Shown: positions 26,731 through 53,380 of the stretch, piece after piece
Layout of the letters: every line of letters starts with the position of its first letter
Numbering within the stretch: the first letter of the stretch is position 1
DNA from: Elusimicrobiota bacterium
GTDB lineage: Bacteria; Elusimicrobiota; UBA5214; JBBAAG01
Direction of reading: 5' to 3'
Assembly: GCA_041658405.1 (NCBI GenBank)
Contig: JBBAAG010000002.1
Location: 453-64,452 of the forward strand
DNA length: 64,000 nucleotides
Translations under genes and position numbers: made by a program
Notes under the pieces: model-generated
The model's input: only the letters and a program-made list of their open reading frames with translations
Databases searched by the model: none
What the model was told of the DNA's origin: nothing

Positions 26731-26845
26731 CTTATTGTTTTACAACTCCTCATTAATTACACAACCAACCCGTTTAATAATTACACTTATAAACTATATG
26801 CGGTATAGTATATCAAACCTTTCATTAATACGATTATTATGAAAG

Positions 26846-27691
26846 TTATTTTATGTACAGATTGTCAATCAACCTTGTGTTGCCATACCATACGGCTAAC
26901 AATATTACTACAGGTAATTTAATATTTTTAACTTCTTCCAAAGTATCCGGAGCGCAGATACTAATATAATCAATTTTAGAAGGATTGCTTTTATTGATAA
27001 TACTGCGTATTGCACTCAAAACTGTTTTAGCAAACCGGATTTTTTTGTTTACTACCAACTTTCTTGCGGTATTAAGTGCACAGGATAATGCTAATGACTT
27101 TAAACGCTGTTCTTTTGATAGATAGGCGTTTCTTGAACTTTTAGCAAGGCCGTCATGTTCGCGTATAATCGGGCATTCAACAATACTTACGGCTAAGTTA
27201 AGATCCTGTACCATACGTTTGACCACGCGTATCTGCTGAAAATCTTTTAACCCGAAATATGCGCGGGTGGGGTTTGTTAGGTTGAAAAGTTTTAATACTA
27301 TTGTTGCAACTCCGCGGAAATGGCCGGGCCGGAATTTGCCGCAGAGAAGGTTGTCAATTTTTTCAATATTAACATAGGTTTTGTATCCTTCGGGATACAT
27401 CTCGTTAGGTACCGGCGTGAAAATGTAATCCACCCCGATACTGCGGCATAATGCCGCGTCTTTTTTCAGCATACGCGGGTAACGCAGGTAATCTTCATTC
27501 GGCCCGAATTGCGCGGGGTTAACAAAGATTGTTACTATAACAACATCATTTTCCTTCCGTGCGCGGGTTATCAACGCTGCGTGGCCGTCATGCAAAGCGC
27601 CCATTGTGGGTATAACACCGATTGTTTTTCCGGTGGAAGCCAACCGGCGTGAAATGTTCTGTATCTCGCGGCAGGTGCGGAGTATCTTCAT
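26846..27691 (-). CDS. panC: pantoate--beta-alanine ligase
   Basis: PTMGALHDGH and the VTIFVNPAQF motifs. Confidence 0.85.
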   Translation of the reverse strand: MKILRTCREIQNISRRLASTGKTIGVIPTMGALHDGHAALITRARKENDVVIVTIFVNPAQFGPNEDYLRYPRMLKKDAALCRSIGVDYIFTPVPNEMYPEGYKTYVNIEKIDNLLCGKFRPGHFRGVATIVLKLFNLTNPTRAYFGLKDFQQIRVVKRMVQDLNLAVSIVECPIIREHDGLAKSSRNAYLSKEQRLKSLALSCALNTARKLVVNKKIRFAKTVLSAIRSIINKSNPSKIDYISICAPDTLEEVKNIKLPVVILLAVWYGNTRLIDNLYIK

Positions 27692-28188
27692 GTATTTTCA
27701 ACCCCGTACTTCACAACCTTTTGTGTTTTATCAGGTATTTGTAATAACTCATTAATATCCTTCCCTGTTATAGGATGAACAAACTGTGGTTCAATTTCCC
27801 CAAGGGGTACTAAAACAAACCGGCGTGATACCGCGCCGGGGTGCGGGATAATAAGGTTCTCGTCTTCCACCTGTAGGTTGTCATAAAACAAAATGTCGAT
27901 ATCAATCATCCTTGGGCCCCAATGCTGGCTCCGCAAACGGCCAAGCCTTACTTCAATTGCTTGACATAACTTCAGTAACCTCTGCGGTGCGTGTAATGAA
28001 GATATTTTTATGACAATATTAAGAAACGCAGGTTGTAACAATACCTTCCCTACGGGCGAAGTTTCGTATACTGACGATTGTTTTAGTATAGAAATCCCGC
28101 GGGTATTGCTCAACGCTTGTACTGCGGCAATAATATTTTTATCGCGATAACCAAGGTTTGACCCCAGGCTTAGATAAATTTCATGCAT
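27688..28188 (-). CDS. folK: 6-hydroxymethyl-7,8-dihydropterin pyrophosphokinase (HPPK)
   Basis: YLSLGSNLG, YETSPVG, GPRMIDIDIL. Confidence 0.8.
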   Translation of the reverse strand: MHEIYLSLGSNLGYRDKNIIAAVQALSNTRGISILKQSSVYETSPVGKVLLQPAFLNIVIKISSLHAPQRLLKLCQAIEVRLGRLRSQHWGPRMIDIDILFYDNLQVEDENLIIPHPGAVSRRFVLVPLGEIEPQFVHPITGKDINELLQIPDKTQKVVKYGVENT

Positions 28189-28190
28189 AT

Positions 28191-29360
28191 TTAGAGTTTA
28201 ATCTCGGACATACGTTTTAATGCTTCCATAATTTTTTCTATCGGTACAGTTAATGCGAAGCGTACATACCCTTCACCGCTGGGCCCGAACCCAACACCCG
28301 GTGTGCAAACAATCCCGGCATCATCCAAGAGTTTTCCGACAAACGCTGCGGAACTATAGTTTCTTGGGCATTTACACCACACATAAAACGTTGCCATCGG
28401 CAGTTTAGCTGACCACCCAAGGCCATTAAGGCCTTTTATAAAAATGTCACGGCGTTCACGGTATGTTTTCCGCATTTCAGTGACACAGGTTTGGTCAGAT
28501 GATAAAGCCGCTACCCCTGCTTCCTGAACAGCATTGAATACACCGGAGTCGTAGTTATCCTTAACTTTTGCAAGCCCGGCAACTAAATCCTTATTCCCGC
28601 AAACCCATCCTATCCTCCAGCCTGTCATATTATAAGTTTTGGATAATGAATGAAACTCAATTGCAACATCCTTAGCTCCGGGTACCTGAAAAATACTGCC
28701 GGGCTTGTTATCTTCATCGTAATACATTTCGGAGTACGCATTATCTGAAGCAATGATGATCCCGTGTTTTTTTGCCAGTGCCACAACTTTTTCGTAGAAC
28801 GCCATTGGCGCCACTGCGCCGGTCGGGTTGTTTGGATAGTTAATCCAAATAAGTTTTACGCGTTTAAGAGTGTTTAACGGTATAGCGTCGAGGTTGGGGA
28901 GGTAATTATTTTCTTCCTTCAACGGCATAAAGTATATTTTTCCGCCGGCAAATATTGTGCCGGATTGATACACAGGATACGCGGGTTCCGGGATAAGTAC
29001 TGTATCGTCCGGATTGATAAACGCTAACGGAAAATGGCCGATAGCTTCTTTTGACCCGATAACCGCGTGTACTTCCGTCATTGGGTCCATGTTAATACCA
29101 AACCGTTGCTGCATCCATTGTGAAGCGGTTTCACGGAAAAGTTTTAACCCCGCACCAAACGGGTACTGGTGGTGTTCCGGTTTTTCTACCGCAATTTTTA
29201 TGGCGTCAATAATATGTTTTGGCGTAGGGAGGTCGGGATCGCCAATACCTAAACTGATAATTTTAATCCCGCGCGCGAGTGCCGCTTTTTTTTTGCGGTC
29301 AATTTCCGCGAAAAGGTATGGGGGTAACTGCCCAAGTCTTTTGTTGAATTCAATACTCAT
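28191..29360 (-). CDS. dapL: LL-diaminopimelate aminotransferase (DapL-type class I aminotransferase)
   Basis: PPYLFAEID, ISLGIGDPDLPTP, NNPTG, SLSKTYNMTGWRIG. It is clustered with dapB, dapA, dapF and lysA. Confidence 0.6.
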   Translation of the reverse strand: MSIEFNKRLGQLPPYLFAEIDRKKKAALARGIKIISLGIGDPDLPTPKHIIDAIKIAVEKPEHHQYPFGAGLKLFRETASQWMQQRFGINMDPMTEVHAVIGSKEAIGHFPLAFINPDDTVLIPEPAYPVYQSGTIFAGGKIYFMPLKEENNYLPNLDAIPLNTLKRVKLIWINYPNNPTGAVAPMAFYEKVVALAKKHGIIIASDNAYSEMYYDEDNKPGSIFQVPGAKDVAIEFHSLSKTYNMTGWRIGWVCGNKDLVAGLAKVKDNYDSGVFNAVQEAGVAALSSDQTCVTEMRKTYRERRDIFIKGLNGLGWSAKLPMATFYVWCKCPRNYSSAAFVGKLLDDAGIVCTPGVGFGPSGEGYVRFALTVPIEKIMEALKRMSEIKL

Positions 29361-29379
29361 AACAATGTTTTTTATACTC

Positions 29380-29739
29380 CTACTCTTTCTTTTTTATCGT
29401 TAATAAATACCGTATCCTGAACATAACATAAACCAAAAAAAACAGTATAGCAAGTGCAATCGTATTTACGGTTAACCCTTCAAATATTTCGGGATAATCC
29501 TTAAACGTTTTTGCAGTGAAGGTAATATCCGTTAAAGCTTGTAATTTAGGGAATATTCCGCCGGTATAAACCAGGATTGTCCATAGTAGCCAGTAGAGTA
29601 CGGTGAGTACGGTCATCACAATGATAATCATCGCTCCTAAGTGTACCGGATCGTATTGCGGTACAGTTGGATCATCATTTTCTGTAAACTGGTTATTCAG
29701 GTACTGCTGAATTTTTTCAAGCCACTTACTATTTATCAT
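29380..29739 (-). CDS. small membrane protein, 2 TM helices
   Basis: A 119-aa ORF wedged between dapB and dapL at operon-like spacing. Confidence 0.45.
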   Translation of the reverse strand: MINSKWLEKIQQYLNNQFTENDDPTVPQYDPVHLGAMIIIVMTVLTVLYWLLWTILVYTGGIFPKLQALTDITFTAKTFKDYPEIFEGLTVNTIALAILFFLVYVMFRIRYLLTIKKKE

Positions 29740-29744
29740 TATTC

Positions 29745-30527
29745 TTACTTCAACCCCAAAACGTCTTGCATATCATATAATCCCGCAGGTTTTGAGGTAA
29801 GCCATTTCGCGGCGTATACCGCGCCGGAAGCAAACGCGTTACGGCTATGCGCGCGATGCGTTATCTCTACGCGTTCCCCTGCCCCAACGAACATAATCGT
29901 GTGGTCCCCAACGATATCGCCTCCGCGAACCGCGTGGACGCCGATCTCAGTTTTTTTTCTCGCCCCAACCAAGCCTTCACGGCCATAGACCGCGTCAGCC
30001 TTGAGGTCGCGGTTGAGCGTATCAGCAATAATCTCTGCAAACCGCGCAGCAGTACCAGACGGCGCGTCCTTCTTTTGGTTGTGATGCGCTTCAATAATTT
30101 CTACGTCGTAACCCTCAAGTTTTTGCGCAACTTCGCGTATGGTTTTGAATAAAATGTTCACTCCGATACTCATATTTGGCGCATGAACCACCGCGATTTT
30201 TGCGCTTGCAGTTTTTACCGCCAAGAGCTGGTCCGGGTTCAACCCGGTCGTGCCGATAACAATTGGTTTGCCAAGTTTCATAGCGGTTTCCGCGTGTTCT
30301 ACTGACGCTGTGGGGGATGAAAAGTCGATCACAACGCCGCTTTTGGCAAACGCTGCGTCAATGTTATCCGTAATTTTTACTGCGGTGCCGATAACCGTGT
30401 TTCCAACCGCCGGGCTGGCAGATGCTTCCACCGCGCCGACAATCGTAAATTCTTTGTCCGCAACGGCTAACGCGAGTATCCGAGTGCCCATCCGCCCCGC
30501 TGCGCCGCATACTGTTAAACTTATCAT
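29745..30527 (-). CDS. dapB: 4-hydroxy-tetrahydrodipicolinate reductase
   Basis: VCGAAGRMG Rossmann motif and a C-terminal DapB domain. Confidence 0.85.
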   Translation of the reverse strand: MISLTVCGAAGRMGTRILALAVADKEFTIVGAVEASASPAVGNTVIGTAVKITDNIDAAFAKSGVVIDFSSPTASVEHAETAMKLGKPIVIGTTGLNPDQLLAVKTASAKIAVVHAPNMSIGVNILFKTIREVAQKLEGYDVEIIEAHHNQKKDAPSGTAARFAEIIADTLNRDLKADAVYGREGLVGARKKTEIGVHAVRGGDIVGDHTIMFVGAGERVEITHRAHSRNAFASGAVYAAKWLTSKPAGLYDMQDVLGLK

Positions 30528-30586
30528 AATCGTAAACTCCTCATAAATCTATTAGTTATTGTCAATACCCAATGCCTATAATAATA

Positions 30587-30700
30587 CTATTTTTCCACAT
30601 ATCTCTCAAAATACTTTCTTACCTCAGTATTTGTAAAATGTACATAACATCCCTTCAAACCTCTTGAAAGCGAGGTTCTATAAATGTTTTTAATATACTG
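30587..30700 (-). pseudogene. C-terminal remnant of a second DUF2075-family gene
   Basis: The minus-strand translation is YIKNIYRTSLSRGLKGCYVHFTNTEVRKYFERYVEK*. This aligns to the last 36 residues of the intact DUF2075 protein (IIKNTYKTLMTRGTKGCYVYFTDKETEEYFMSRIGK*) at about 50% identity, including KGCYV.FT. A stop lies immediately upstream. Confidence 0.6.
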
Positions 30701-30809
30701 TTAAAATTTATTTACTTTTTGAAGTGTTGGATCTTTTGTTTCATTTATAGCAACCTTTAAAACAACGGTTGATATATATGACTTTTTGTTTGTATCTATT
30801 TGGGGTATA

Positions 30810-32660
30810 TTATTTACCAATTCTCGACATAAAATACTCTTCCGTTTCTTTATCCGTAAAATACACGTAACACCCCTTCGTCCCCCGAGTCATGAGCGTT
30901 TTATAAGTATTTTTGATAATGTTGCCTGCAACTTCCTTCGCTTTCTCAAGATTATCTTCTAGCATCTTCCTGTACCCATTTAACGATTTATCCGTCCTCG
31001 CCCGGTTCGAAGGTACAGTCACAATCTCACCGTCACGGCATAACAAGTCTGGTCCGACAATAACACCGATATAATCAAGTTCCAACCCCTGGCACGTGTG
31101 TATACATCCCGCTTCTGTAACAGACTGAGGGTCGATTATCCATTTGTTCCCGTAACTTTTAAAATTCCATTTTATCTTAAAATCCCATCCTGGTATAACG
31201 ATATCATACGCATCGGGATCCTTAGCACTTACCCAGTTCCAACAGTATCCCGCTACGATACGCGCTTTATTGTTAATCTGATTTTTCTCAAATATCATAT
31301 CTCTTAGCTCCACTGGGCTTTTCATCACACGAAAGTCGTATTCTTGACGAGACAAATACATATTCGCTGTTGGCCGTTTCTGCAAAGTATTATCCAGCCA
31401 TGCAAGGTATCCATCGGAACCGTTACACCTGAACTGCGAGGGTAGATCCATCTTAATCACCACTGCACCCAACTTTTTGGCCCAACACACTATTTCGTCA
31501 GTATCCCCAATATCTTTCAATGTAACCTTCTGATCTTCGTCTAAGAAGAATACGCACGTCCTAGCAGCATTGATTAACTCCTTTACCTGGTTTTCTCCTG
31601 AATTCTGAAACATCCCACTTCGTTCGTTCAACCTATGCGCTTCATCTACGATCAGACAATCGAAAACATTTGTGGCACAGTCAACAAACTTACCTGAACC
31701 ACAAAAAAGGTTAGCAATCCTTGTCTTCTTCATAGTCCCCGTGAGTTTCACTTCGTACACCGTCCGCGGAGCGGAATTTTTTGTAACATACCTCGCGTTG
31801 TACTGTTTCTGGGTAGAAGCAACTAATAAATTCACAGCTACGACTGACTTACCGGTACCTGCGCCACCGTTGACAATCAACACTTGTTTTTTTCCGTTAC
31901 GTATCATTTCTAACACGGTTTCGTACACTAACTTCTGTTCGTCTATCAGTACAAACTCTTTATTCCCTTTCATCAGAGAAGCCAACGAGTCTGCTAAGTT
32001 TTTTGACGGTTTTATCCGCCCGCTTTCGATGAGGAAAATACATTCAGACTTGTCTCCATATTTTACGAACTGTTTTATAAACTCCCTGAGTTTTATCGCA
32101 TCGTTTTTAAGGAATACAGGCGCTTTCGATAAATGTTCCTGATAAAAAGAGTTGGTGATAACGTCATCTGGTATGTAGTTGTGTAGGTACGAACAGGGTT
32201 TCAATGAGATGCTGTAATCTAGCACCGCTTCGTTATAATCTTCTAGCAATGCAGCGTACGACCAGGCCTGGTAGCTCGGGTGTTGGCATTCATGCATACC
32301 GCCATTAACAAACGTTTTGACAACTGCATCCTGTTGAGTTAGTTTAGCGGACTCCCATTGTTTGAGTTCAATTATGATCAAATGGGGTGCGTTTTTGGTA
32401 TCCTGCCCGCTGATGATAAAGTCTATCCTCCTTGAAGAAGACGGTATGACATACTCTATCGCTACTCCACAATCCGTTGGAATATCAGGATCGCTAAGCA
32501 CGGTTTCCATGTACCGCAAAGAGTTTTGATACGCTCTAATTTCTGCAGGGGAATAACCCGATACATGTTTTAATTTAAGAGAATTCACTACTTTATCTGT
32601 GAGAGTATTATTTAAAACATCATTCGAAAACTCTGTTTTTGTTGCCGTATAAATAATCAT
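30810..32660 (-). CDS. DUF2075-family protein: N-terminal PD-(D/E)xK nuclease-like domain plus P-loop/DEAH helicase-like ATPase
   Basis: RIDFIISG...IIELKQWE (D...ExK), Walker A GGAGTGKS, motif II DCLIVDEAHRL. 616 aa. Confidence 0.7.
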   Translation of the reverse strand: MIIYTATKTEFSNDVLNNTLTDKVVNSLKLKHVSGYSPAEIRAYQNSLRYMETVLSDPDIPTDCGVAIEYVIPSSSRRIDFIISGQDTKNAPHLIIIELKQWESAKLTQQDAVVKTFVNGGMHECQHPSYQAWSYAALLEDYNEAVLDYSISLKPCSYLHNYIPDDVITNSFYQEHLSKAPVFLKNDAIKLREFIKQFVKYGDKSECIFLIESGRIKPSKNLADSLASLMKGNKEFVLIDEQKLVYETVLEMIRNGKKQVLIVNGGAGTGKSVVAVNLLVASTQKQYNARYVTKNSAPRTVYEVKLTGTMKKTRIANLFCGSGKFVDCATNVFDCLIVDEAHRLNERSGMFQNSGENQVKELINAARTCVFFLDEDQKVTLKDIGDTDEIVCWAKKLGAVVIKMDLPSQFRCNGSDGYLAWLDNTLQKRPTANMYLSRQEYDFRVMKSPVELRDMIFEKNQINNKARIVAGYCWNWVSAKDPDAYDIVIPGWDFKIKWNFKSYGNKWIIDPQSVTEAGCIHTCQGLELDYIGVIVGPDLLCRDGEIVTVPSNRARTDKSLNGYRKMLEDNLEKAKEVAGNIIKNTYKTLMTRGTKGCYVYFTDKETEEYFMSRIGK

Positions 32661-32671
32661 TATAATCCCCT

Positions 32672-33016
32672 CTATAGCTGCGTATATTTTGTATGTTTCC
32701 CTTTTGATTTCCGAACAGGATACTTTGTTTGATTCTTTTTAAGTTTTTTTGCCAAGGCTATCAAGATATCAATTTTAAGATCATGACTCATCAACAATAC
32801 CCAATACAGAACATCAGCCAGTTCATCCCCTATTGCATCTTTGTGTTGTATTACGTATTTCTCAATCTCTTCATTATTTTTCCATTGAAAATGTTCAAGA
32901 ACTTCAGTTGCCTCAAGAACAAGCGACAACGCAACGTCTTTTGGATTATGAAACTGTTTCCAATCACGTTTTGTACGGAATTCAATAATTTTCTTAGTGA
33001 TACTTTTTAGATTCAT
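32672..33016 (-). CDS. MazG-like nucleotide pyrophosphohydrolase (small all-alpha NTP-PPase)
   Basis: 114 aa with EATEVLEHF and DELADVLYWVLLMSHDL motifs. Its stop is 11 bp before the DUF2075 start. Confidence 0.65.
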   Translation of the reverse strand: MNLKSITKKIIEFRTKRDWKQFHNPKDVALSLVLEATEVLEHFQWKNNEEIEKYVIQHKDAIGDELADVLYWVLLMSHDLKIDILIALAKKLKKNQTKYPVRKSKGKHTKYTQL

Positions 33017-33125
33017 AGTTCCCGTGTCTAAAAAACACTGTTTATCGCATCAGTGAAAGCACAGGAATTTGTCAGACGAATAGGAGTAAGGACTTTTATC
33101 GTTCGAAGATTTAATCGTAACTCGA

Positions 33126-35090
33126 CTAATTACTTTTGTTCAACATGTCTTTTGCTATCTTATATTCTTTTTTAAAATCTATCCCAATATCCAAGTTGGG
33201 GTCTATTGTTTGAAACGCTACATACATAAACGCTAATAATTGTAAGCCCGAAAATTCTTTGTCAGGGATGCTTGTTAAATGATATTTTTTCTCGGTATCC
33301 AAAGGATCAATTCCTTGAGTCCCGATTTTGGCTATCTCAAATCCGGCTTTTGTGATTTCTTCATTGGATTTGTCTTGAAAGTATTGTAATGCAGAAAGAC
33401 AATACATTACTGTAGCCATGTGTTTAGGAGATTGTTCAGAAAAAGAGACGTTATTCTTTGGATTAGTTTTTTCAACCGAGTCAATGAAAGTTAATGAAGC
33501 AGGATAGTTTTTACGATATTCGTCTTCCGAAACTATAGAAAAATAGGATGCTAAATTCAATTTCTTCGCCCAATTGTTTATCAATTCGTATTCCATTGCG
33601 GGCCTATGCATATCCTTGTTTTTGAAATATTCTTTGTAAAGTTCGTTTGATATGCGTAATTGTTGTTGCGTAGGATTAAATTTATAGATCAAATCAATAC
33701 CAAATAATTCTTTAAATTGCAGCGCGTTTACGATATTCAATATTTTGCTGGCATCAGTGACCAATGGAGGTATGATTTCTGCGGCTCTTGTGTCTGTTAC
33801 TGCCTTTATTCCTTCAGAAATTAAATTGTGTAACGACAAAAATTGATACGGCCTTAAATCCGGATGAGTATTGTATAGATAATTCTCAATAAATAAATCG
33901 ATAGGCGTGTTAAAGATTTGCCGGTTTATTCCATCAAACAAAGCCGAAATAAAGTCAGATATGTTTTTGTCATTAAGCCCTTGTTGATTTAATCCATTAA
34001 TTGTTTTTTCTGTCGAAACAATAAATGCTTTCTTGTGTTCATTAGTGGAGATGAAAAGTTTATTTGCCCCCACCTTTCGTGCTTCAAGGTTAAAATATAG
34101 ATGAACCAGTTCATGCATCACGAGATGCTCGACAGCGGGATAATCGTTTTTATAACGTATTACATGCGAACCCTTATTATAATTTTCAGCGATCTCTATT
34201 TTTGCAGCAGTTGGGATAGAAGCGTCTTCAACAATTTCAATTGGTTTATTCGATTGCTCTTCAAGGATTGATCTATACTGACGAAATATTTCTTTTCCAT
34301 CAATATGTCCAATATACTTAGTTGCAGTTTCCTGAGCAAGCGTTAGGATGTGGTTGAATAACTGGTTGCTACTACATGTAGGGGGGGGGGAATTTGTCAT
34401 GCTTTGAATAGCAAAATCAAACGCCTTCAAATAATCTTTTTTTATATCGTTTATTAAACCTAATGCAAAAGTTGTATGCGGATACTTTGGGTCAATCTCA
34501 TATGCCATCTCAAAATATTTTATTGCTTGTTCAATTTTTCCGGACTGCATAAGATTTGCGCCCAGATTATTGATAGCAATATTATCCCGAGGATTTATCT
34601 TAATTGCCTGGTCATAATATTTGGTCGCAGATGTAATATCGTTTTTATGTTTTGAAAGAATGTTGCCCATCATGATAAGTGCAAAACAATTTTTAGGATC
34701 CCATTTTAAAGCGTCTATTAAACAATTCAATGCTTCTTCTGAATTCCCTTCATCGGAATATATTTGTCCTAACACCCTGTGATACTCTGAATTTGCTGGA
34801 TTTGTTTCTATTAGTTTCATTAAGATTGGTTTAGCATCTCTGAATCTTCTTTTTTCACACAAGCTTATCACTGTGTCAAAATCTTTTTTCTGCGTAGCTA
34901 TTAAATTAATATCAATCGAAATTGAAACAATATTTTTAATTTCATCAATTTCAACTTTAGGTTTATATGGGCCAAAAGTGTAATAACTAATCAACTCTTT
35001 CCTCAACTTATCAATATTACTACCGTCCATCACTTTGGTTTTCGGAAAAAGCTCAAACAAAAAATTGTCTAGTTTGTGAATAATAATCAT
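33126..35090 (-). CDS. TPR-repeat protein with a central HExxH (zincin-like) motif
   Basis: 654 aa with about 5 TPR repeats N-terminally and HLVMHELVHLYF. An in-frame C10 tract encodes SPPP. Confidence 0.6.
   Translation of the reverse strand: MIIIHKLDNFLFELFPKTKVMDGSNIDKLRKELISYYTFGPYKPKVEIDEIKNIVSISIDINLIATQKKDFDTVISLCEKRRFRDAKPILMKLIETNPANSEYHRVLGQIYSDEGNSEEALNCLIDALKWDPKNCFALIMMGNILSKHKNDITSATKYYDQAIKINPRDNIAINNLGANLMQSGKIEQAIKYFEMAYEIDPKYPHTTFALGLINDIKKDYLKAFDFAIQSMTNSPPPTCSSNQLFNHILTLAQETATKYIGHIDGKEIFRQYRSILEEQSNKPIEIVEDASIPTAAKIEIAENYNKGSHVIRYKNDYPAVEHLVMHELVHLYFNLEARKVGANKLFISTNEHKKAFIVSTEKTINGLNQQGLNDKNISDFISALFDGINRQIFNTPIDLFIENYLYNTHPDLRPYQFLSLHNLISEGIKAVTDTRAAEIIPPLVTDASKILNIVNALQFKELFGIDLIYKFNPTQQQLRISNELYKEYFKNKDMHRPAMEYELINNWAKKLNLASYFSIVSEDEYRKNYPASLTFIDSVEKTNPKNNVSFSEQSPKHMATVMYCLSALQYFQDKSNEEITKAGFEIAKIGTQGIDPLDTEKKYHLTSIPDKEFSGLQLLAFMYVAFQTIDPNLDIGIDFKKEYKIAKDMLNKSN
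34381..34390. repeat. G10 homopolymer; C10 on the coding strand of the TPR-HExxH gene
   Basis: Counted directly. It encodes S-P-P-P in frame. Confidence 0.8.
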
Positions 35091-35101
35091 TTTTTATTAT
35101 A

Positions 35102-35509
35102 AATTTCTTTCAAAACATTTTCTTTAACACAATTTATTATACATTATCGCTTCACATCGGGACAATACTGGTGTTTATCCGTAACAAGCCGAAAGACCGG
35201 AAAAATACAATATTGTTTATCAACGCAGCGGAGTGTTACGAGTCCGTGAAAAACCAAAACAAGCTGCGGGACGAGGATAACACAAAAATTGTTTAAGTAT
35301 TTGAGGAAAACAAAAACGTGGACCGTTTCGCGCGGGTCGTGGAATTAGACTAAATCCGGGGTAACGAGTATAACCTCAACATCAGCCGGTACGTGGATAT
35401 TACTGAACCGGAACCGGTCGTTGACGTAAAGGACGCGCTTGCGAAACTGCGCGAACTTGAGAAACAACGCGATGCCGCTGAGAAGAAAATGAACGAGTAC
35501 TTGAAATAG
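35102..35509 (+). pseudogene. hsdM: hsdM (type I R-M methyltransferase) 3' remnant with two in-frame stops
   Basis: A single frame reads ...IFFNTIYYTLSLHIGTILVFIRNKPKDRKNTILFINAAECYESVKNQNKLRDEDNTKIV* VFEENKNVDRFARVVELD* IRGNEYNLNISRYVDITEPEPVVDVKDALAKLRELEKQRDAAEKKMNEYLK*. This matches the conserved HsdM C-terminus (LFYNTGI..ILV..KNK, VLFIDAS, NQN.L.DE.I.KIV, YNLNISRYVD). TAA stops lie at 35294 and 35351. The 5' roughly 350 codons are missing. Confidence 0.7.
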
Positions 35510-35609
35510 CTGGGGTATGACTAGGATAATAAAACTTGACAAAATAAAGGAAAGTGGTAATAATATATACTGATACATCTAAAATGGATGTGTGAGTATA
35601 TAATTAGAT

Positions 35610-36203
35610 ATGAAAAATATTGATATAGATAAGCCTTTAGTAATGTTAGGAGTGTTGCTTGAAGCCAATAATACGGTATCGCCCATTAACTTGGTGGTAT
35701 GCGGCGGTGCGGCGCTTATTATTACTGGTACGATAACCCAGAGGGTGGTTACAAAAGATGTGGATGTTATTGCAATAATTTCAAACAATTTAGTTGATAT
35801 TATAGAATGCGCAAAATTACCGGAAGCCGTAATTGATGCAAAAGACAAAGTAGCGGCTAACTTGGGGTTAGATACTGATTGGTTGAATACACAGTTTTCA
35901 CATATAGTCAAAGACGGGTTACCGAAAGGGTTCGAATCAAGGTTGATCCCAAAAAAATACGGTAAGTCTTTGACAGTGTATTTTGTTGGCAGGGAAGACC
36001 AAATATGTTTCAAATTACTTGCAGCTGCGGATTCTAAACTAACTAAACATTTTGATGATTTACAGGAGTTGAAGCCCACAGCAGTAGAAATTCAAAACGC
36101 TGTTGACTGGATACTCGGACACGAATCAAGAATAAATTATAAATATGATATTAAATACATTGTAAGAAGGCTAGGATATGAAACAATCGCTGATAGAATT
36201 TAA
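35610..36203 (+). CDS. minimal nucleotidyltransferase-fold protein, AbiEii/DUF1814-like
   Basis: LVVCGGAALIITGTITQRVVTKDVDVIAII is a GG...DxD NTase signature, close to AbiEii GGTAL...S.DIDF. 197 aa. Confidence 0.55.
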   Translation: MKNIDIDKPLVMLGVLLEANNTVSPINLVVCGGAALIITGTITQRVVTKDVDVIAIISNNLVDIIECAKLPEAVIDAKDKVAANLGLDTDWLNTQFSHIVKDGLPKGFESRLIPKKYGKSLTVYFVGREDQICFKLLAAADSKLTKHFDDLQELKPTAVEIQNAVDWILGHESRINYKYDIKYIVRRLGYETIADRI

Positions 36204-37203
36204 AACAGCGTATATCTATAAAATTACCAACATCCTCTGGCGGCAATGGACGGCACTCGGGGTTCCCGGTACTATTGATGTTGAAGATAAAGGGGTTGTG
36301 GATCCAGAAGCGTTGATCCCCGCAACCTGCCTGTTTGGCCGTTACGACAGCCGGTTGTTTGACGAAATGTTGAACTGGCTGTACATTAACGGTAAAGTTG
36401 TCAATATCCAGAGATTGAAAAACATTATTGCAAAAGAAATGTTTGTAAACGCGGATATTATTCCGGCAATCGCCGAGTTTTTGAATACTACGAGTAAGTA
36501 CCGGTTCTTGAAGTGGAAAAAAATACTGCCTGCTGCCAATAATGTTACGGACAAAAAAAACTTTTTTTATTTCCGCGATGGGAACGCTATGGAACAGTTT
36601 GGCCCGGCTGACGCGATATTCGAAAAGTACGGATACCTGCGCGGGCCGGTGAAGTTGAGAGAGCACACTTTGCCGGTATATTATCGGTACGGCAGCGATG
36701 TTATATTCAAACTTCGCGCGTTATTCGGGGTACGTACTCGCGCGGACATTGTTTTGTACTTATTAACACACGAGTACGCGCATCCCAGGGAAATCGCGCG
36801 AGATTTGTATTACGCTCCTAAGTCGGTACAGGATATTCTTATCGAAATGTCGAATTCCGGGCTCGTTAATATGCGGCCGGAAGGAAAAGAAAAACAGTAT
36901 TTCCTTGATAAAACCAGATGGCATGAATTCCTGAAACTACACGATAGGCATGTGGAGTGGATAACCTGGCCGGCAGTGTTCCGCGCATTAGAGATTATAT
37001 GGTTAAAAATCAGCGGGGAGAAAGCCGACGGGTATAGCAAATTGTTATTATCGTCGGTACTACGTGAGGTTATGGATGAAGTGAAATATAAAATTGAAGC
37101 CGCTGGGATTAACAATGTTTTGACGAATCCCAAGTTTTATCTTGGGGAACAGTACGTGGATGTTTTTTTCGCGGATATGAACAGGTTGTTTGAGAAATTA
37201 TGA
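36178..37203 (+). CDS. 341-aa protein with a predicted winged-helix DNA-binding domain, partner of the NTase
   Basis: RADIVLYLLTHEYAHPREIARDLYYAPKSVQDILIEMSNSGLVNMRPEGKEKQYFL looks like a wHTH. Its start overlaps the NTase gene by 26 bp, and its stop overlaps the next ORF by 4 bp. Confidence 0.5.
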   Translation: MKQSLIEFKTAYIYKITNILWRQWTALGVPGTIDVEDKGVVDPEALIPATCLFGRYDSRLFDEMLNWLYINGKVVNIQRLKNIIAKEMFVNADIIPAIAEFLNTTSKYRFLKWKKILPAANNVTDKKNFFYFRDGNAMEQFGPADAIFEKYGYLRGPVKLREHTLPVYYRYGSDVIFKLRALFGVRTRADIVLYLLTHEYAHPREIARDLYYAPKSVQDILIEMSNSGLVNMRPEGKEKQYFLDKTRWHEFLKLHDRHVEWITWPAVFRALEIIWLKISGEKADGYSKLLLSSVLREVMDEVKYKIEAAGINNVLTNPKFYLGEQYVDVFFADMNRLFEKL

Positions 37204-37439
37204 AACTAAAAACTTTTAATACTAGTCATAAAACAAAGAAAACGCCGGCCGGGGAAATCCCAGTGGACTGGGGAACTATTGAACTAAATAAAATAGTGAA
37301 TATAGAAAAGGGTAAAGTTCCAGAATTGATTGAACAACCCGAATGGATGTTTCGTACAGCCAACGGGTATAGTTACGACGAGCTCGAAGCGTTAGCCACA
37401 AAAATTATGGACTTAGCCCGTACGCGGCTCGGGAATTGA
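37200..37439 (+). pseudogene. hsdS: hsdS (type I R-M specificity subunit) remnant, 79 codons
   Basis: ...EIPVDWGTIELNKIVNIEKGK matches the HsdS N-terminal TRD start (P.GW....L.EI....G). It is far too short for a functional two-TRD HsdS. Confidence 0.5.
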
Positions 37440-38155
37440 AAATGGATGAAAAAAGTGTGGTAACGTTTGGTAGCCAAAATATTGAGTTTGGCATCATCCG
37501 CAGCGCCCGGCGAACCATAAGCATCATTGTCGACCCTTACCTTGGCGTCTACCTCCGGGTACCGCGATATATTGGGTTGCCCAAAATCCAGCAAATCGTG
37601 AAAACAAAAGCTAAATGGATTTCTGATAAGATGGAATACATAAACAAGCTTGGCGAGATGCCGAAGAAGAAAGAGTTTGTTTCCGGCGAAGCGTTTTCGT
37701 ACCTCAACCGCCAGTATCGTTTATTGGTAGAAGAGTCAAACATAAATGAAGTGTTTTTTTTGGGTAACTATATCGTTGTAGAAACTACACATATAAACCA
37801 TCCGCGGTTAATCCGTGTGTTAATAGAAGAGTTTTACAAACAAAAAGCGCGGAAAGTGTTGGTGCGGCGAGTAGAGATTTATTGTAAGAAACTCAACCTC
37901 CCGCTCCCGCCGTTGACTGTAGCGAATCAAACCAAGAAATGGGGTAGTTGTAACAGTAAGGGGCATATACGCATAAACTGGCGGATAGTAATGGCGCCAA
38001 TAGTGCTTGTAGACTATATTTCAGCCCACGAGTTGTGTCATGTGATACAAAAGAATCATTCTACAGAGTTTTGGAAACTACTCGGCAGTATTATGCCGGA
38101 CTACGACACCCGCCGTGAACGGTTGCGTAGAGAAGGGTATAAATACTTTTTCTAA
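37436..38155 (+). CDS. DUF45/YgjP-like (M48/SprT-like) metal-dependent hydrolase
   Basis: WGSCNSKGHIRINWRIVMAP...YISAHELCHVIQKNHSTEFW carries WGSC and HExxH...NHS motifs. The family is commonly linked to type I R-M loci. Confidence 0.7.
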   Translation: MKMDEKSVVTFGSQNIEFGIIRSARRTISIIVDPYLGVYLRVPRYIGLPKIQQIVKTKAKWISDKMEYINKLGEMPKKKEFVSGEAFSYLNRQYRLLVEESNINEVFFLGNYIVVETTHINHPRLIRVLIEEFYKQKARKVLVRRVEIYCKKLNLPLPPLTVANQTKKWGSCNSKGHIRINWRIVMAPIVLVDYISAHELCHVIQKNHSTEFWKLLGSIMPDYDTRRERLRREGYKYFF

Positions 38156-38158
38156 ATT

Positions 38159-40777
38159 CTATTTTTTTGCGATATCCGGCAGCATAAACCGCCAGATCGG
38201 CAAGTTAAACTGTTCCCCGGCCGATATCTCAAGTTCTTTAATAACATCTTCCCAGCCGGGTACACCGCGGATTGACTGCGGGGAGAAAGGATTCGCTGCG
38301 AAGTACACAACTTTTCCTTTTCCAAACCCGCGAATCACCACACCAGGATTACCGTCGGATAACGTTGCCGCTACCGTCGCTTTCGGGTCTACCACTTTTA
38401 CGGTTACTGCTGTGTTGGTCCATCCGGTAGAACGGCGTTGGGGTTTGTATAACACAAACTTCTGCCCGGCTTTCATCGATTTCAACGCATCCGTCCCCGT
38501 GCCTACCAACGCATCACTCAGGTTCTCGTCCCCGACTTGCACGCCAAAAAGTTCTTCCTGATACTTCGCGAGGCTCGTTCCGTCCGGCGCTAGGGTAAAC
38601 GCTTTCGAATCCCCGACAACCAGTGTCCCGCCTGCCGAAGTCCAGTCGCGTAAACGTTTGACCACTTCTTCCCGCTGCAGCCACGCGTAAGGAACATAGA
38701 TAATTTTGTAGTCCTCAAGTTTATCCGCGCCATCCAATATTTTATCGTCGGCAATAAACCGGAACCACACGCCAAGTTTTTCGCCTAACCACGCATAAAT
38801 TGTGTAAAGTTCGTCTGCGTAGATCGAGTTAACTTCGCTGAGATTGGTGTCCTGGGATACAAAAATTGCGGTTGATGTTTTCTCAGGAAACTTAATTTTC
38901 TTCATCGTGGTAACAGTTTTTGATACGTGCTTCATCATTTCCCATCGCGGCGGGTCGGTTACCATCGGCGCGTCCGACGCGTAGTATTCTATGCATACCG
39001 CACCGGTCTTCATACACTGGCTTGCCCATTCGCGGATATCTTCCGGCAACGGTTTGTACCCGTCATAAAAAAATGCTTGCATAATAGTCCATACCGGCTT
39101 CCCACCGATATCGTTCAAAAATTTTGTGCCGAACCCGTGGTTATAAATCCCGCGGCCACGGGTACGCCCATGCGCTTCATCCGCCGATGTGGTGTACGGA
39201 TCGCATAACGCGAGGTCCATTGTTTGCGCCATTTTCCAGTAATCGTACATAGACAACCCGCCCATAAACCAGTAGTCGCAGGGTTGCCATAACGCTGTGG
39301 GGTCGATGGATTTCAGCGCGTCTCTCATCCGTATACGCGATTCTACAAATTTATCACTTGCCCAGCGGTTATATGCCAGCCAACTTAACAGCGTGTCAGT
39401 ATCTGGTTTGGTTGTAACAAATTTTGTTCCCTTAGCGACATTAGCTCCTTTTATTGATGGTACTGGGATACCGTATTTTCCGTAGCCATACTTTTCTTTG
39501 ACTTCCACCTGCGCGTTTATCCAAAACGGTATGATATCGATAAATTCAGGCCCTGCCGGGCTTAAAGTCGGCTCGTCCACTCCGCGGTAAACATATACTG
39601 CGCCAGTTTCTTTGTGGGTAGTAACAATATTTTTCAGTGCTTCAATTACGACGTCAACATAAACAGGATCCGCGAGGAATAGGCGTTTTCTCCCTCCAGC
39701 AGCTGGATGTATTACAGGCGAACCTTTCTTTTCTGCAACTGCCGCAACAGGTGAGGTTTCTACCATAAGCCATGATTTGGCATTATACTTTTTGCGGTAC
39801 TCATTGAAAATCGCGCTTGACCCGTGAGGGATCAGCATTCCGCATTCCACTTGTTGGTCAAGGTATGACCGTAAATGTTTTTCGTATGCTTTAGGATCTT
39901 TTTTAAACTGTTCCTGCATATACTGCGGCAATTGTGCGGTGCGTATGTCGTGGTTCCACGACGCGCAAGCGTAGTTTCCCGGTTCGTTGTACAACACTTC
40001 ATCAAAAACCGGACGGTCGCGTTTGACCCCGTAGTTCGTTGGTTCCATATCGCCGTAATCCAGGCGTTCAATATAGTTGTGTTTAAACGATAATGTGGCG
40101 AATCGTTCCGGCTGGTTAAACTTCCCGCGGATGGGAGACCATGTGCTTTGTTCCATAGAATTAGGTACCTGCCGGGTAAAGTTTATGCGGTACTCGTCGT
40201 TAATACCGCCAAAATCGGTGAACGGCATTACAAAGTCGGCTGTCCAAAAGGTTTTATCTATCTTTGTAGAAGTCTTAAAATTACCCTTCCACTTTTCATC
40301 CGATGTTTTCCCGGTTTGGTCTTCAGTAACAACTTCGTGGTTCACATAAACAACGTTTTTGGTGTTTAATACCCAATGAAATGATTCCAGCGGTGAGGGT
40401 GATAAAAATACTTCTACACAATCATCTTTCCAGACATTACTCCCGTTAATTGTTACCGTCGCTTCAATTTTTCTGGGTTCTGGTTCTTCGCATTTGAACT
40501 GAACAAACAACGCGTTATCGTCGTAGGTTACCCTTACTTCAGTCTGCCGTACTGCAAGGTTACCGCTGCCGTTATTAAGATAAAATCCTGTTATTGGTAC
40601 AATTTTATTCCAGTCCGCCTTTTGTCCTTTAGCCAGTTTTGTTATTCCTGTTTTATTAACAACCACGGCATCCGCTTTCTTCACTGCGATAGCTGTTTCC
40701 GCAAATAAGTGTGTTATCTGTGGATATAACAGTGCTGACGTAGCTGCAATAACAACAACGCGTATTAATTTGTTCAT
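38159..40777 (-). CDS. secreted CBM9/DOMON-like + GH42-like protein, paralog of 22487-25813
   Basis: 872 aa with a signal peptide. CBM9-like N-terminus (WNKIVPITGF...LFVQFKCEEPEP...DDCVEVFLSP), KYGYGKYGIP, GGTLVVGDSKAF. Confidence 0.55.
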   Translation of the reverse strand: MNKLIRVVVIAATSALLYPQITHLFAETAIAVKKADAVVVNKTGITKLAKGQKADWNKIVPITGFYLNNGSGNLAVRQTEVRVTYDDNALFVQFKCEEPEPRKIEATVTINGSNVWKDDCVEVFLSPSPLESFHWVLNTKNVVYVNHEVVTEDQTGKTSDEKWKGNFKTSTKIDKTFWTADFVMPFTDFGGINDEYRINFTRQVPNSMEQSTWSPIRGKFNQPERFATLSFKHNYIERLDYGDMEPTNYGVKRDRPVFDEVLYNEPGNYACASWNHDIRTAQLPQYMQEQFKKDPKAYEKHLRSYLDQQVECGMLIPHGSSAIFNEYRKKYNAKSWLMVETSPVAAVAEKKGSPVIHPAAGGRKRLFLADPVYVDVVIEALKNIVTTHKETGAVYVYRGVDEPTLSPAGPEFIDIIPFWINAQVEVKEKYGYGKYGIPVPSIKGANVAKGTKFVTTKPDTDTLLSWLAYNRWASDKFVESRIRMRDALKSIDPTALWQPCDYWFMGGLSMYDYWKMAQTMDLALCDPYTTSADEAHGRTRGRGIYNHGFGTKFLNDIGGKPVWTIMQAFFYDGYKPLPEDIREWASQCMKTGAVCIEYYASDAPMVTDPPRWEMMKHVSKTVTTMKKIKFPEKTSTAIFVSQDTNLSEVNSIYADELYTIYAWLGEKLGVWFRFIADDKILDGADKLEDYKIIYVPYAWLQREEVVKRLRDWTSAGGTLVVGDSKAFTLAPDGTSLAKYQEELFGVQVGDENLSDALVGTGTDALKSMKAGQKFVLYKPQRRSTGWTNTAVTVKVVDPKATVAATLSDGNPGVVIRGFGKGKVVYFAANPFSPQSIRGVPGWEDVIKELEISAGEQFNLPIWRFMLPDIAKK

Positions 40778-40800
40778 TCAAACGGTTCTCCATTAATGAT

Positions 40801-41679
40801 TTATTTAAGTAATCCGTAGGCCGACATTTCTTTTCTTAACTTTTCTTTATTTGCATCATCCATCGGCGCTAATGGCAACCGCAGTTCGTCACTGCATAAG
40901 CCCATTATCCCCGCTGCGGTTTTTATCGGGATAGGGTTAGTTTCGATAAACAATGTTTTTATCAGTGTAAACGCTTTTAAATGTAACGCCTGTGCGGTTT
41001 TTAGGTCGCCCTTGAGGTACGCAGCGCACATGTCATGTACATCTTTAGGCGCAATGTTTGCCAGTACAGAGATCACGCCGTACCCGCCGACGGACATTAT
41101 CGGCAGCGTTAATGAATCATCACCGGATAATACCGGTATTTTATCACCGAATTGTTTAACTAGTTCCGATGTTTGGTCGACATTACCCGACGCTTCTTTC
41201 ACACCGACAACTAAACCTGTTTCTTTCGCTACTTTTATAATAGTATCCGGCAGCATGTTAACACCTGTCCGGCCAGGGATGTTATAGATTACCATAGGAA
41301 TATTAACATCCTTCGCTACTTTTTTGAAATGCAGGACCAATCCTTTTTGTGTGGGTTTATTGTAATACGGTACAACCAGTAGGACAGCATCCGCTCCAAC
41401 TTTTTTCGCGTACTCTGACATCTCAATAGTTTCAGTTGTGGAATTCGCGCCGGTACCTGCGATTACAGGTACGCGTTTTTTTGCCTGTTCCACTACAACT
41501 TCTATCACGCGTTCATGTTCTTCATACGATAATGTCGGTGACTCGCCTGTTGTCCCGCAGGGGACCAGGCCGTTGGTACCGTTCTTTATCTGAAACTCCA
41601 CAAGTTCACGTAATTTTTCTTCATCCACCTTATTGTTTTTAAACGGTGTTACAAGCGCAACAAAGGATCCTTTTAACAT
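40801..41679 (-). CDS. dapA: 4-hydroxy-tetrahydrodipicolinate synthase
   Basis: VALVTPF, GTTGESPTLS, and the length fit DapA. Confidence 0.85.
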   Translation of the reverse strand: MLKGSFVALVTPFKNNKVDEEKLRELVEFQIKNGTNGLVPCGTTGESPTLSYEEHERVIEVVVEQAKKRVPVIAGTGANSTTETIEMSEYAKKVGADAVLLVVPYYNKPTQKGLVLHFKKVAKDVNIPMVIYNIPGRTGVNMLPDTIIKVAKETGLVVGVKEASGNVDQTSELVKQFGDKIPVLSGDDSLTLPIMSVGGYGVISVLANIAPKDVHDMCAAYLKGDLKTAQALHLKAFTLIKTLFIETNPIPIKTAAGIMGLCSDELRLPLAPMDDANKEKLRKEMSAYGLLK

Positions 41680-41719
41680 TTTTTAATACTCCTTCTCTTT
41701 TGTGTTAGAACAATATTAT

Positions 41720-42559
41720 CTAAATTTTTATCTCGCCGGTAAACGATGTCTGGACTTTACCGGTGAGATATACCAACCCTAATTTATCTAAATTATACTT
41801 TACCTTCAACTTTTCACCGCTGCTTGTGATAACCGTTACCGGGGGTTCAACTTTGTTTAATACCCCGGAAATAATTGCCGCAGCGGTTGAGCCGGTCCCG
41901 CAAGCTAAAGTTTCAGCTTCCACCCCGCGTTCATATGTACGCACGCTTATTGTATGCCCGTCTTCTATCTGCACAAAATTGACGTTAGTCCCGGCTGGAG
42001 AAAATTTTTTGTGGTATCGTACCAGTCTCCCGAGGCCGTTGACGTTAACCTTCTGAAGTTGTGTGGTATATATTACCGCATGCGGGACGCCGGTATTAAC
42101 AAAATACGCGGTGTACCTCCGCCCGCCAGCTATGATTTCAAGCCCGAGTTTAATACCATGCGGGTCGGTAAGTTTTACTTCCACCCACTGGCTATCAATC
42201 ACGCGTCCTTCAATAGTCCCGGCTTTTGTTTCAAACGCTGTTGTCGTACCGATAATACTGTTTTCATATGCGTATCTTACGATACACCGTGCGCCGTTAC
42301 CGCACATTTCAGCTTCACTGCCATCGGAGTTAAATATGCGCATCTTGAAATCCAGTATCGCGCTTTTCTCAACAACCAGTACTCCATCCGCGCCGATACC
42401 GGTCTTACGGTTGCATAACCGCACAGTTAATTTAGCGAGGTTCTTATACTTACCCCGGCGGTTATCAAATACAACAAAGTCGTTGCCGGTACCTTGCATC
42501 TTCCAAAAATGTAGGACTTTAGCGTTACTCATGTTCTTGTACAAACTCCTGTTTTCCAA
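41720..42559 (-). CDS. dapF: diaminopimelate epimerase
   Basis: FWKMQGTGNDFVVFDN and two catalytic Cys regions (CGNGARC, CGTGSTA). Confidence 0.85.
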   Translation of the reverse strand: MENRSLYKNMSNAKVLHFWKMQGTGNDFVVFDNRRGKYKNLAKLTVRLCNRKTGIGADGVLVVEKSAILDFKMRIFNSDGSEAEMCGNGARCIVRYAYENSIIGTTTAFETKAGTIEGRVIDSQWVEVKLTDPHGIKLGLEIIAGGRRYTAYFVNTGVPHAVIYTTQLQKVNVNGLGRLVRYHKKFSPAGTNVNFVQIEDGHTISVRTYERGVEAETLACGTGSTAAAIISGVLNKVEPPVTVITSSGEKLKVKYNLDKLGLVYLTGKVQTSFTGEIKI

Positions 42560-42571
42560 GCGTTAACTTTA

Positions 42572-52984: not shown

Positions 52985-53371
52985 TTGTACAAAAATATGT
53001 TTTCCGGTGTCATAGTAAATAGAGGATCATCAAAGATGACGGAAAACGTTAAGGACACGATTGTAAAACAACTCTGCGCAATGTTGTCCCGCCACGGGTG
53101 GTATTACGAACTCGCGGATAAAGATTCTACAAACAACGACGCGGATATCCTGTCGACCAACGGGCGGGATTTGTATATGAAAGTAGTAACAAATCCCGAA
53201 AAGACGGATGTAGAATTGTGTATAGATAACGGGGTGAACATGTTCGTTGTTACAGATACATCATTAAAAAGCCTTCTAACCGATAAAGTTTATGCGGTCA
53301 ACCCAAAAATTCCGGTACTTTTACCTGATGAAGCCGAACCGTACGTAGTTAAATACAAAAAACAGGAGTAG
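52985..53371 (+). CDS. hypothetical protein
   Basis: A 128-aa ORF between the anti-sigma and regulator genes with no recognisable motifs. Confidence 0.4.
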   Translation: MYKNMFSGVIVNRGSSKMTENVKDTIVKQLCAMLSRHGWYYELADKDSTNNDADILSTNGRDLYMKVVTNPEKTDVELCIDNGVNMFVVTDTSLKSLLTDKVYAVNPKIPVLLPDEAEPYVVKYKKQE

Positions 53372-53380
53372 CTGTACAGG

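Follow-up and report, generated by a model that had tools for sequence, protein, structure and literature searches.

The DNA analyzed here, a stretch of 64,000 nucleotides from an uncultured Elusimicrobiota bacterium (contig JBBAAG010000002.1, positions 453 to 64,452; hereafter the window), carries a lysine biosynthetic operon that is interrupted by a lineage-specific block of 10.3 kb, which includes a CBM9/GH42-like gene and separates dapA from dapB. The 7.6 kb between dapB and the CBM9 gene (30528-38158), comprising six intact open reading frames (ORFs) and three gene remnants, are proposed to be a mosaic defence island of three layers that lies inside the ancestral dap operon, has no mobility genes of its own and contains an operon acting as an antiphage unit; we regard this as the probable reading of the region. 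Layer A would be the intact minus-strand operon running from 35090 to 30810, in which a tetratricopeptide repeat (TPR) protein with a zincin-like motif (TPR654, the TPR-zincin), a MazG-like pyrophosphohydrolase related to DCTPP1 and a nuclease-helicase of the DUF2075 family (SLFN616) are predicted to work together as one antiphage unit. Layer B appears to be a wrecked type I restriction-modification (R-M) system, represented by an hsdM tail, an hsdS stub and an intact YgjP gene, in which an intact pair of genes for a DUF6036 nucleotidyltransferase (NTase) and a winged helix-turn-helix (wHTH) protein is embedded. Layer C, the 3ˊ stub of an earlier and divergent DUF2075 gene, suggests that an earlier cassette of this family has been replaced here.

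The three genes on the left lie on one strand, with 11 bp between MazG and the start of the nuclease-helicase gene and 109 bp in the other intergenic gap; they are no random collection and constitute a single operon, the components of which are found together in several phyla. SLFN616 belongs to a family with more than 8000 homologues that share 58-65% identity across phyla. Alignment with 16 homologues revealed that E69, D80 and the E98-x-K100 motif of the nuclease domain, the Walker A motif G265-K271 (GxGTGKS) and the DEAH box at residues 339-342 are all invariant. PADLOC returned partial matches only, to Nhi (E=7e-12) and AbiO (E=4e-12) over residues 233-385, the P-loop region, and to PDC-S41 (about 1e-11 to 1e-12). 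As in Type IV restriction, the nuclease has no cognate methyltransferase, the sole methyltransferase sequence being the hsdM pseudogene.

The MazG-like protein scores 59.6 bits against PF12643 (cut-off 27) and possesses the metal-site motif E-x-x-E...E-x-x-D, in which E35, E38, E65 and D68 are invariant. A profile of its family, compared with the PDB, matches the DCTPP1/RS21-C6 structures 6sqw and 2a3q with E=1.4e-29 over positions 4-109 of 109. DCTPP1 cleaves dCTP, with a preference for 5-modified dCTPs. The TPR-zincin consists of five to six TPRs and a helical domain of about 410 residues, and H322, H326, E327 and H330 of its HxxxHExxH motif are invariant in 37 sequences. Its homologues, of about 655 aa and 46-52% identity, are found in Nitrospirota and Bacteroidota, and no M78 match was obtained with Pfam. 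An Xre-family helix-turn-helix (HTH) gene lies directly upstream of the TPR-zincin gene in the Bacteroidota loci L165, L166, L168-171 and L184, and in none of the Nitrospirota loci. A scan of IMG/VR for the TPR-zincin gave one partial match, situated next to a serine recombinase where the contig breaks off (L172), which is uninformative.

In each of the nine complete contexts sampled, the TPR-zincin is accompanied by a ~110-aa MazG; these contexts are the window, L163/164 (Nitrospirae), L165/166 (Ferruginibacter), L167, L168-171, L173 (a Hymenobacter plasmid), L174 (a decayed copy on a Marivirga plasmid), L184 (Saprospiraceae) and L185. The gene that follows varies: it encodes an NmeDI_C restriction endonuclease (REase)-like protein in L162, L163, L167 and L185 (L162 ends at a contig edge before any MazG), a McrB-like AAA_5 protein together with a McrC-like protein in L165, L168 and L173 (PADLOC candidate PDC-M26A/B), and a DUF2075 protein in the window, L182/183 and L184. 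L182/183 is an orthologous triad, its TPR-zincin and DUF2075 proteins being 42% and 59% identical to those of the window. When the contexts were sampled by DUF2075 instead, MazG was directly upstream in five of five (the window, L175-177, L178, L181 and L182/183). When they were sampled by MazG, DUF2075 was directly downstream in two of four Bacillota plasmid contexts and a DUF2075-like helicase was adjacent in a third, with type I R-M, HNH or DUF3578/MutT genes alongside. The neighbors of the cassette loci include NgoPII R-M with Vsr, DndB, GmrSD_N-HNH, Shedu SduA_C, Mrr, NERD, SIR2 and PLD proteins. The window MazG shares 71% identity with the DUF2075-linked MazG of L178 and 35-45% with the TPR-linked MazGs; it thus falls into the DUF2075-linked clade, indicating that the window triad joins a TPR-zincin to a MazG-DUF2075 pair.

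Among the plasmid matches of MazG, 74 of 91 come from the Bacillus cereus group. Two MazG-DUF2075 pairs on Bacillota plasmids are L188, on the Priestia plasmid NZ_CP083270 (3349-7255, adjoining a type I R-M system), and L189, on the B. cereus plasmid NZ_CP045607 (3572-7160); small genes precede both, MutT and a DUF3578 protein in one case and an HNH endonuclease and a hypothetical protein in the other. Where the TPR-zincin is missing, the partners before MazG-DUF2075 differ: a DndB-like protein and a 179-aa protein in L175 (4017-5644), and, in L178 (3846-5627), a 348-aa protein and a 231-aa HNH protein whose N-terminal domain has no assignment. These varied upstream partners may be alternative sensor modules. 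An SRA-like reader domain in the 231-aa protein was considered as a guess and not used, for Pfam confirmed HNH alone.

It is proposed that SLFN616 is the effector, which would degrade invading DNA as Nhi does; its architecture and its intact catalytic motifs point to this role. MazG may hydrolyze dCTP or 5-modified dCTP and so starve phages that build their DNA from modified cytosine nucleotides; alternatively, it may bar salvaged modified dCTP from the host DNA and thereby spare the cell from a nuclease that lacks a methylase. Both roles are put forward because MazG is homologous to DCTPP1 and always travels with nucleases without a methylase, and this specific assignment is a tentative one. 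The TPR-zincin would serve as a sensor or a regulatory protease, because of its invariant HExxH motif, a weak CapP-like fold signal and the Xre HTH gene upstream in the Bacteroidota loci. We further consider it possible, though with reservation, that [Xre HTH]-TPR-zincin-MazG is an undescribed cassette that rides on interchangeable methylase-less nucleases and couples hydrolysis of (modified) dCTP and proteolytic sensing to restriction; this proposal covers DUF2075/Nhi-like, McrBC-like and NmeDI_C-like nucleases in Bacteroidota, Nitrospirota, Elusimicrobiota and plasmids. Within a literature search leaving out most subscription journals, no paper was found that joins DUF2075 with MazG, TPR/MazG with McrBC, or dCTP pyrophosphatase with host defence.

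Several observations weigh against the reading of the island as a defence locus with an antiphage operon. The context sample comprises about 20 loci that were picked by homology rather than at random. The window triad is a recombinant of two pairs, so that coupling of all three genes is not guaranteed. PADLOC and DefenseFinder-style calling gave partial Nhi, AbiO, PDC-S41 and Specificity_I matches and no complete system; SLFN616 matches the curated Nhi and AbiO models in the P-loop region and not over their full length, and Pfam detects no modified-base reader domain in it, so that 'modification-dependent' is a guess. The C-terminal domain of the TPR-zincin has no significant fold match, and the word 'protease' relies on the motif; moreover, only the hsdM pseudogene is found upstream of TPR654, which has no adjacent Xre-family HTH gene, unlike the Bacteroidota loci. 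The conservation of the DUF2075 family across phyla is unusual for a defence gene and fits a role in DNA damage or repair equally well, as does the C-terminal Peptidase_S24 (LexA/UmuD-like) domain present in roughly one in four of the nearest DUF2075 homologues (~795 aa; P0242-P0339). As for the insertion, no close relative was found that could reveal presence/absence polymorphism: the best DapB match is 59% identical among 185,579 species genomes and 55% in JGI metagenomes, and in a collection of 5.8 billion proteins the best listed identity is 60%, the sole identical sequence being from the same organism and one higher-scoring match, on a 2.4-kb contig, being listed without an identity value.

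Some of these points lead to a different explanation, in which the TPR-zincin, MazG and DUF2075 proteins serve in DNA-damage or nucleotide-pool housekeeping, as a dCTP-pool sanitizer and a helicase-nuclease for repair that are controlled by proteolysis in an SOS-like manner, and simply happen to lie beside R-M debris. The high conservation and large size of the DUF2075 family and its many members with a LexA/UmuD-type S24 domain would suit such a role, as would the homology of MazG to DCTPP1, which is a house-cleaning enzyme in mammals, and the presence of UvrC nearby in L178. Against it stand the patchy distribution of the genes, which occur on plasmids and have no homologue near dapB in 160 genomes, the constant R-M, GmrSD, Shedu, Mrr, NERD and McrBC neighbors, the exchange of the effector for McrBC-like or REase-like nucleases, and the proven antiphage activity of other proteins that combine a nuclease with DUF2075; we therefore consider the housekeeping explanation unlikely and favor an antiphage operon. 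Examples of DUF2075 genes with the S24 domain are found in L175 (6001-8388) and L184 (7296-9503); the domain suggests that self-cleavage triggered by RecA or DNA damage could be an alternative to the TPR-zincin as a means of control.

Features of the island and its flanks are collected in Table 1. The coordinates and flanking genes of the island given in an earlier note on this DNA proved right, dapB, dapL, the CBM9 gene and dapA-dapF-lysA being confirmed by models. That note had counted eight genes or gene remnants; the content is essentially as it described, and a ninth element, the second DUF2075 stub, had been overlooked. The functions it had named, a nuclease-ATPase, a MazG-like protein, an HExxH protein, type I R-M debris and a DUF45 protein, were recovered; NCBIfam and PHROGs added nothing specific. 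The 'NTase pair' it reported contains one NTase (DUF6036), the partner being the wHTH protein. Its suggestion of a defence island is largely upheld in that at least two defence genes or systems lie within 7.6 kb (the Nhi-like protein, the R-M remnants, YgjP and the NTase/wHTH pair), although none of them is called as a complete system by PADLOC.

Table 1. Genes and gene remnants of the island and of the flanking lysine genes, with positions in the window.
Feature	Position	Strand	Assignment and remarks
dapL	28191-29360	-	left flank; NCBIfam equivalog models and Pfam
dapB	29745-30527	-	native left flank; TIGR00036, E=5.9e-87
3ˊ stub of second, divergent DUF2075 gene (pseudogene)	30587-30700	-	in the dapB-SLFN616 spacer; last ~37 codons
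SLFN616, PD-(D/E)xK nuclease + DUF2075/SLFN-g3 superfamily 1 (SF1) helicase, 616 aa	30810-32660	-	third operon gene; PF09848, E=6.5e-100, positions 1-354/354
MazG-like protein of 114 aa, all-alpha NTP pyrophosphohydrolase homologous to DCTPP1	32672-33016	-	second operon gene; PF12643, E=3.7e-16
TPR654, TPR + zincin-like (HxxxHExxH) protein, 654 aa	33126-35090	-	first operon gene
hsdM pseudogene, C-terminal ~119 codons	35153-35509	+	N6_Mtase positions 226-306/311, E=4.1e-19; six-frame reading
DUF6036 nucleotidyltransferase, 197 aa	35610-36203	+	PF19502, E=3.1e-10; GG...DxD motif intact
341-aa protein with weak winged-helix region (residues ~181-252)	36178-37203	+	26-bp overlap with the NTase gene
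Probable hsdS stub, 79 aa	37200-37439	+	PADLOC Specificity_I, E=7.1e-5, residues 3-50; no Pfam match
YgjP-like (DUF45, 'SprT family') metallopeptidase, 239 aa, intact	37436-38155	+	PF01863, E=3.8e-55, full domain
CBM9/GH42M-like protein, 872 aa	38159-40777	-	right border; Pfam CBM9_1 and Glyco_hydro_42M
dapA	40801-41679	-	ancestral upstream neighbor of dapB; TIGR00674, E=3.4e-114
dapA, dapF, lysA block	40801-43828	-	NCBIfam equivalog models and Pfam

The right half of the island has no complete type I R-M system: hsdM is a pseudogene interrupted by stop codons at 35294 and 35351, hsdS is represented by a probable stub, and no hsdR ORF or match exists within the island. YgjP homologues on plasmids adjoin a type I hsdR (L179 and L180). 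For the 341-aa protein, weak matches (E ~1e-3) of the ArsR-like, Csa3 and CARF-wHTH kinds were the sole ones obtained, and Pfam, the PDB and plasmids gave none; the PDB and plasmids likewise gave none for the DUF6036 protein. Between the hsdM stop and the NTase gene lies the region's best promoter-like site (35536-35564, 11/12). It is by analogy only that the NTase and the wHTH protein are regarded as a probable module of the toxin-antitoxin or abortive-infection-like type, embedded in the R-M remains. A DUF6036/AbiEii-like NTase with a 69-aa partner is also found in L185 (3946-4694, minus strand), divergent from the TPR-zincin gene as in the window. Whether the NTase is part of the system was considered on this ground and rejected: the two NTases share the catalytic motif only, and coincidence is probable.

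The stub in the spacer next to dapB encodes a translation with 51% identity to the final 35 residues of the intact DUF2075 protein (E=7e-11) and aligns with positions 318-353 of 354 of Pfam SLFN-g3_helicase at 23.1 bits (cut-off 24). At the DNA level it is just 56% identical to the intact 3ˊ end, indicating that it comes from a different allele and not from a recent duplication. A promoter scan placed a promoter-like site for dapB at 30609-30581, inside the stub. The three remnants, one of them this divergent earlier DUF2075 allele, would be compatible with serial replacement at the site and are no proof of it.

Base composition sets part of the island apart. Its GC content is 0.383, compared with 0.427 in the remainder of the window, a value as low being reached by only 0.7% of non-overlapping 7.6-kb windows, every one of which falls in the glycosyltransferase/surface-protein cluster at 53-61 kb. 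The core at 32.4-36.2 kb (GC 0.350) has the lowest GC of any 3.8-kb stretch of the window and deviates most in tetranucleotide composition, whereas 36.2-38.2 kb (0.433) resembles the flanks. Relative to the non-island genes (mean GC 0.433 ± 0.033, n=47), MazG (0.330), TPR654 (0.333) and the DUF6036 gene (0.365) are 2-3 standard deviations (SD) low; no such deviation in GC is seen for SLFN616 (0.415), the wHTH gene (0.436) or YgjP (0.429), although the codon scores of SLFN616 and YgjP are about 2 SD low. The AT-richness that the earlier note had judged by eye is thus real and confined to the central half of the island, and composition is not uniform across the region. A recombination seam was considered for the rise in GC from MazG (0.33) to the nuclease-helicase gene (0.415) and rejected, since an equal offset inside the L178 pair (0.333/0.405) indicates that the step is intrinsic to MazG-DUF2075 pairs. 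The only other stretch of the window that is equally AT-rich, 53000-61000, contains genes for glycosyltransferases, for a beta-propeller protein and for a 905-aa Big_1/CHU_C surface protein with a type IX secretion system (T9SS) signal, and is probably a variable surface-polysaccharide cluster.

The earlier note had found no integrase, tRNA or bounding repeats, and our scans of the island likewise detected none: the tRNA search and the Rfam search returned nothing, no repeat bounding the island exceeds chance-level matches of 14-34 nt, no integrase domain is present among the island proteins according to Pfam, and no transposase lies in or beside the island. These results bear on the question of whether the island is a decayed integrative mobile element that has lost its integrase and att sites, rather than a product of integrase-independent recombination at a hotspot. 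A decayed element would account for the mosaic structure and the several truncated genes, and the TPR-zincin fragment beside a serine recombinase on the IMG/VR contig L172 and the DDE transposase fragments near the module on the Hymenobacter plasmid speak for it. Against it, integrase, transposase, tRNA and flanking repeat are all absent in or next to the island, and one border is no more than 3 bp from the stop codon of the CBM9 gene while the other falls in the older DUF2075 stub, which resembles gene-by-gene replacement more than site-specific integration; a decayed element is accordingly judged improbable, and an island without mobility genes of its own is preferred.

The insertion itself is evident from synteny. 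A sample of 160 dapB loci was examined, 120 of which have enough upstream sequence to be informative. In 52 of these 120, dapA is directly upstream of dapB on the same strand, the gap having a median of 68 bp and a maximum of 1362 bp; this includes all four Elusimicrobia loci recovered (L002, L009, L030 and L032), in which dapL, folK and panC follow downstream, arranged as they are in the window flanks. The flanks are syntenic with L002, L009 and L032. On the left, nadA, panC, folK, dapL, a 119-aa membrane protein and dapB occupy the minus strand at 25810-30527, and on the right the CBM9/GH42M-like gene, dapA, dapF and lysA occupy it at 38159-43828. The dapA-dapB gap of the window is 10,273 bp, compared with at most 1362 bp in the dapA-adjacent loci, indicating that the region is an insertion and that the CBM9 gene belongs to it. 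None of the 160 loci has, in the vicinity of dapB, a homologue of any island gene or of the CBM9 gene. The split of the lysine genes described there, an interruption of an ancestral lysA-dapF-dapA-dapB-dapL string, is borne out, and what needs correction is the extent of the block, since the CBM9 gene had been deemed native; this gene does look native in composition (GC 0.467, typical codon score).

It is very unlikely that no insertion took place and that the dapB-dapL and lysA-dapF-dapA blocks were secondarily juxtaposed or rearranged around old residents. The linkage is not universal, 68 of the 120 informative dapB loci (Nitrospirota and many Proteobacteria) having no dapA upstream, and half of the island has a native-like GC content; nevertheless, dapA and dapB are adjacent in all Elusimicrobia loci and in many other phyla, the order of dapL, folK and panC is kept, and the pseudogenes and the step in composition argue for recent flux. 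That the junctions are a chimera of metagenome assembly can be dismissed almost entirely: the source is indeed a contig of a metagenome-assembled genome (MAG), but an identical DapB is found on three contigs from different assemblies (the longest of 129,875 bp, and two of them flagged as having mostly the same neighboring proteins) and the protein in four sources, and coding density is unbroken across both island borders.

Some features of the flanks are recorded in their own right. Between dapL and dapB, a gene for a predicted membrane protein of 119 aa (29380-29739, minus strand) has a 39% identical counterpart at the same position in the Elusimicrobia MAG L032. With a GC of 0.525 (third-position GC, GC3, 0.54), dapB is the most GC-rich gene of the window and markedly richer than its neighbors, which range from 0.36 to 0.45. 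The window contains two CBM9/GH42M-like paralogues on the minus strand, of 1108 aa (22487-25813) and 872 aa (38159-40777), which are 23-28% identical; each ends a biosynthetic string at its 3ˊ side, one behind nadA and the other behind dapA.

The island itself is ordinary, a patch of defence genes in a housekeeping operon, from a phylum for which sampling is poor, and the cassette is a modestly novel and testable lead. The analysis establishes the make-up of the island, its insertion into the ancestral gene order and the joint occurrence of the cassette genes in several phyla, whereas the defence function and the division of labor among the proteins are inferred. If it is functional, Nhi-like proteins, so far tested as single genes, would have an overlooked partner acting on the nucleotide pool, and either a modified-nucleotide-pool arm would be added to the restriction of modified phage DNA or methylase-less nucleases would gain a means of self-protection. 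If the proposal of an undescribed cassette is true, it would represent a new multi-gene defence family. The cassette supplies a three-gene construct that is directly testable, and it defines an uncharacterized family of zincin-like domains of about 410 residues with about 1500 clusters at 50% identity.

Comparison with known systems places the parts of the island as follows. The plasmid loci L179 and L180 have a similar order of hsdM, hsdS and ygjP with cargo between hsdM and hsdS, of which the window holds a non-functional version. An AbiE or MNT-HEPN type is conceivable for the NTase/wHTH pair; its NTase is DUF6036 and not AbiEii, its gene order is reversed relative to AbiE, and its partner protein shows weak wHTH signals of about 1e-3 and no HEPN. 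CapH/CapP, ImmR/ImmA and DdrO/IrrE, switches in which an Xre repressor and an M78 metallopeptidase control the induction of defence or SOS-like operons, have an Xre partner, whereas the TPR-zincins of the window and of the Nitrospirota loci have no HTH partner; moreover, the TPR-zincin is far larger and lacks an M78 match. The MazG system of DefensePredictor consists of MazG, a MazG-C kinase and NMAD/UDG and is different from the window cassette. With the dNTP-depleting defences (dCTP deaminase, dGTPase and the MazG-like variants of PUA-Calcineurin-HAD, in which a MazG-like domain has been predicted to be an NTP-targeting effector) the operon shares a nucleotide-hydrolyzing enzyme in a defence context. 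Its MazG, by contrast, is a stand-alone protein of about 110 aa without a sensor domain that is always paired with a nuclease, and the target may be bulk or modified dCTP.

The closest counterparts are found among nucleases. Nhi from S. epidermidis (SERP2475) and the 'Nhi-like' proteins share with SLFN616 an N-terminal PD-(D/E)xK domain and, behind it, a DUF2075/SF1 helicase; every catalytic motif is conserved. Both have been established experimentally as antiphage, single-protein defences (Millman et al. 2022 for 'Nhi-like'); Nhi is described as acting alone, whereas SLFN616 and its sampled homologues have a MazG-like gene directly upstream and often a TPR-zincin gene as well. The Type IV enzyme SauUSI is genetically linked to a MutT/Nudix gene in at least 60 genomes, the role of the hydrolase there being unexplained, and a methylase-less nuclease coupled to a small (d)NTP pyrophosphohydrolase is also presented in Fig. 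9 of PMC7641849. SauUSI with MutT differs from the window operon in its Nudix fold and in its nuclease family, the window having an all-alpha MazG/DCTPP1 protein and an additional TPR-zincin. It is likewise a nuclease without a methylase coupled to a (d)NTP pyrophosphohydrolase, and elsewhere the MazG/TPR pair precedes true McrBC-type genes; the SauUSI-MutT linkage thus provides a precedent for the pairing of a nuclease with a pyrophosphohydrolase.

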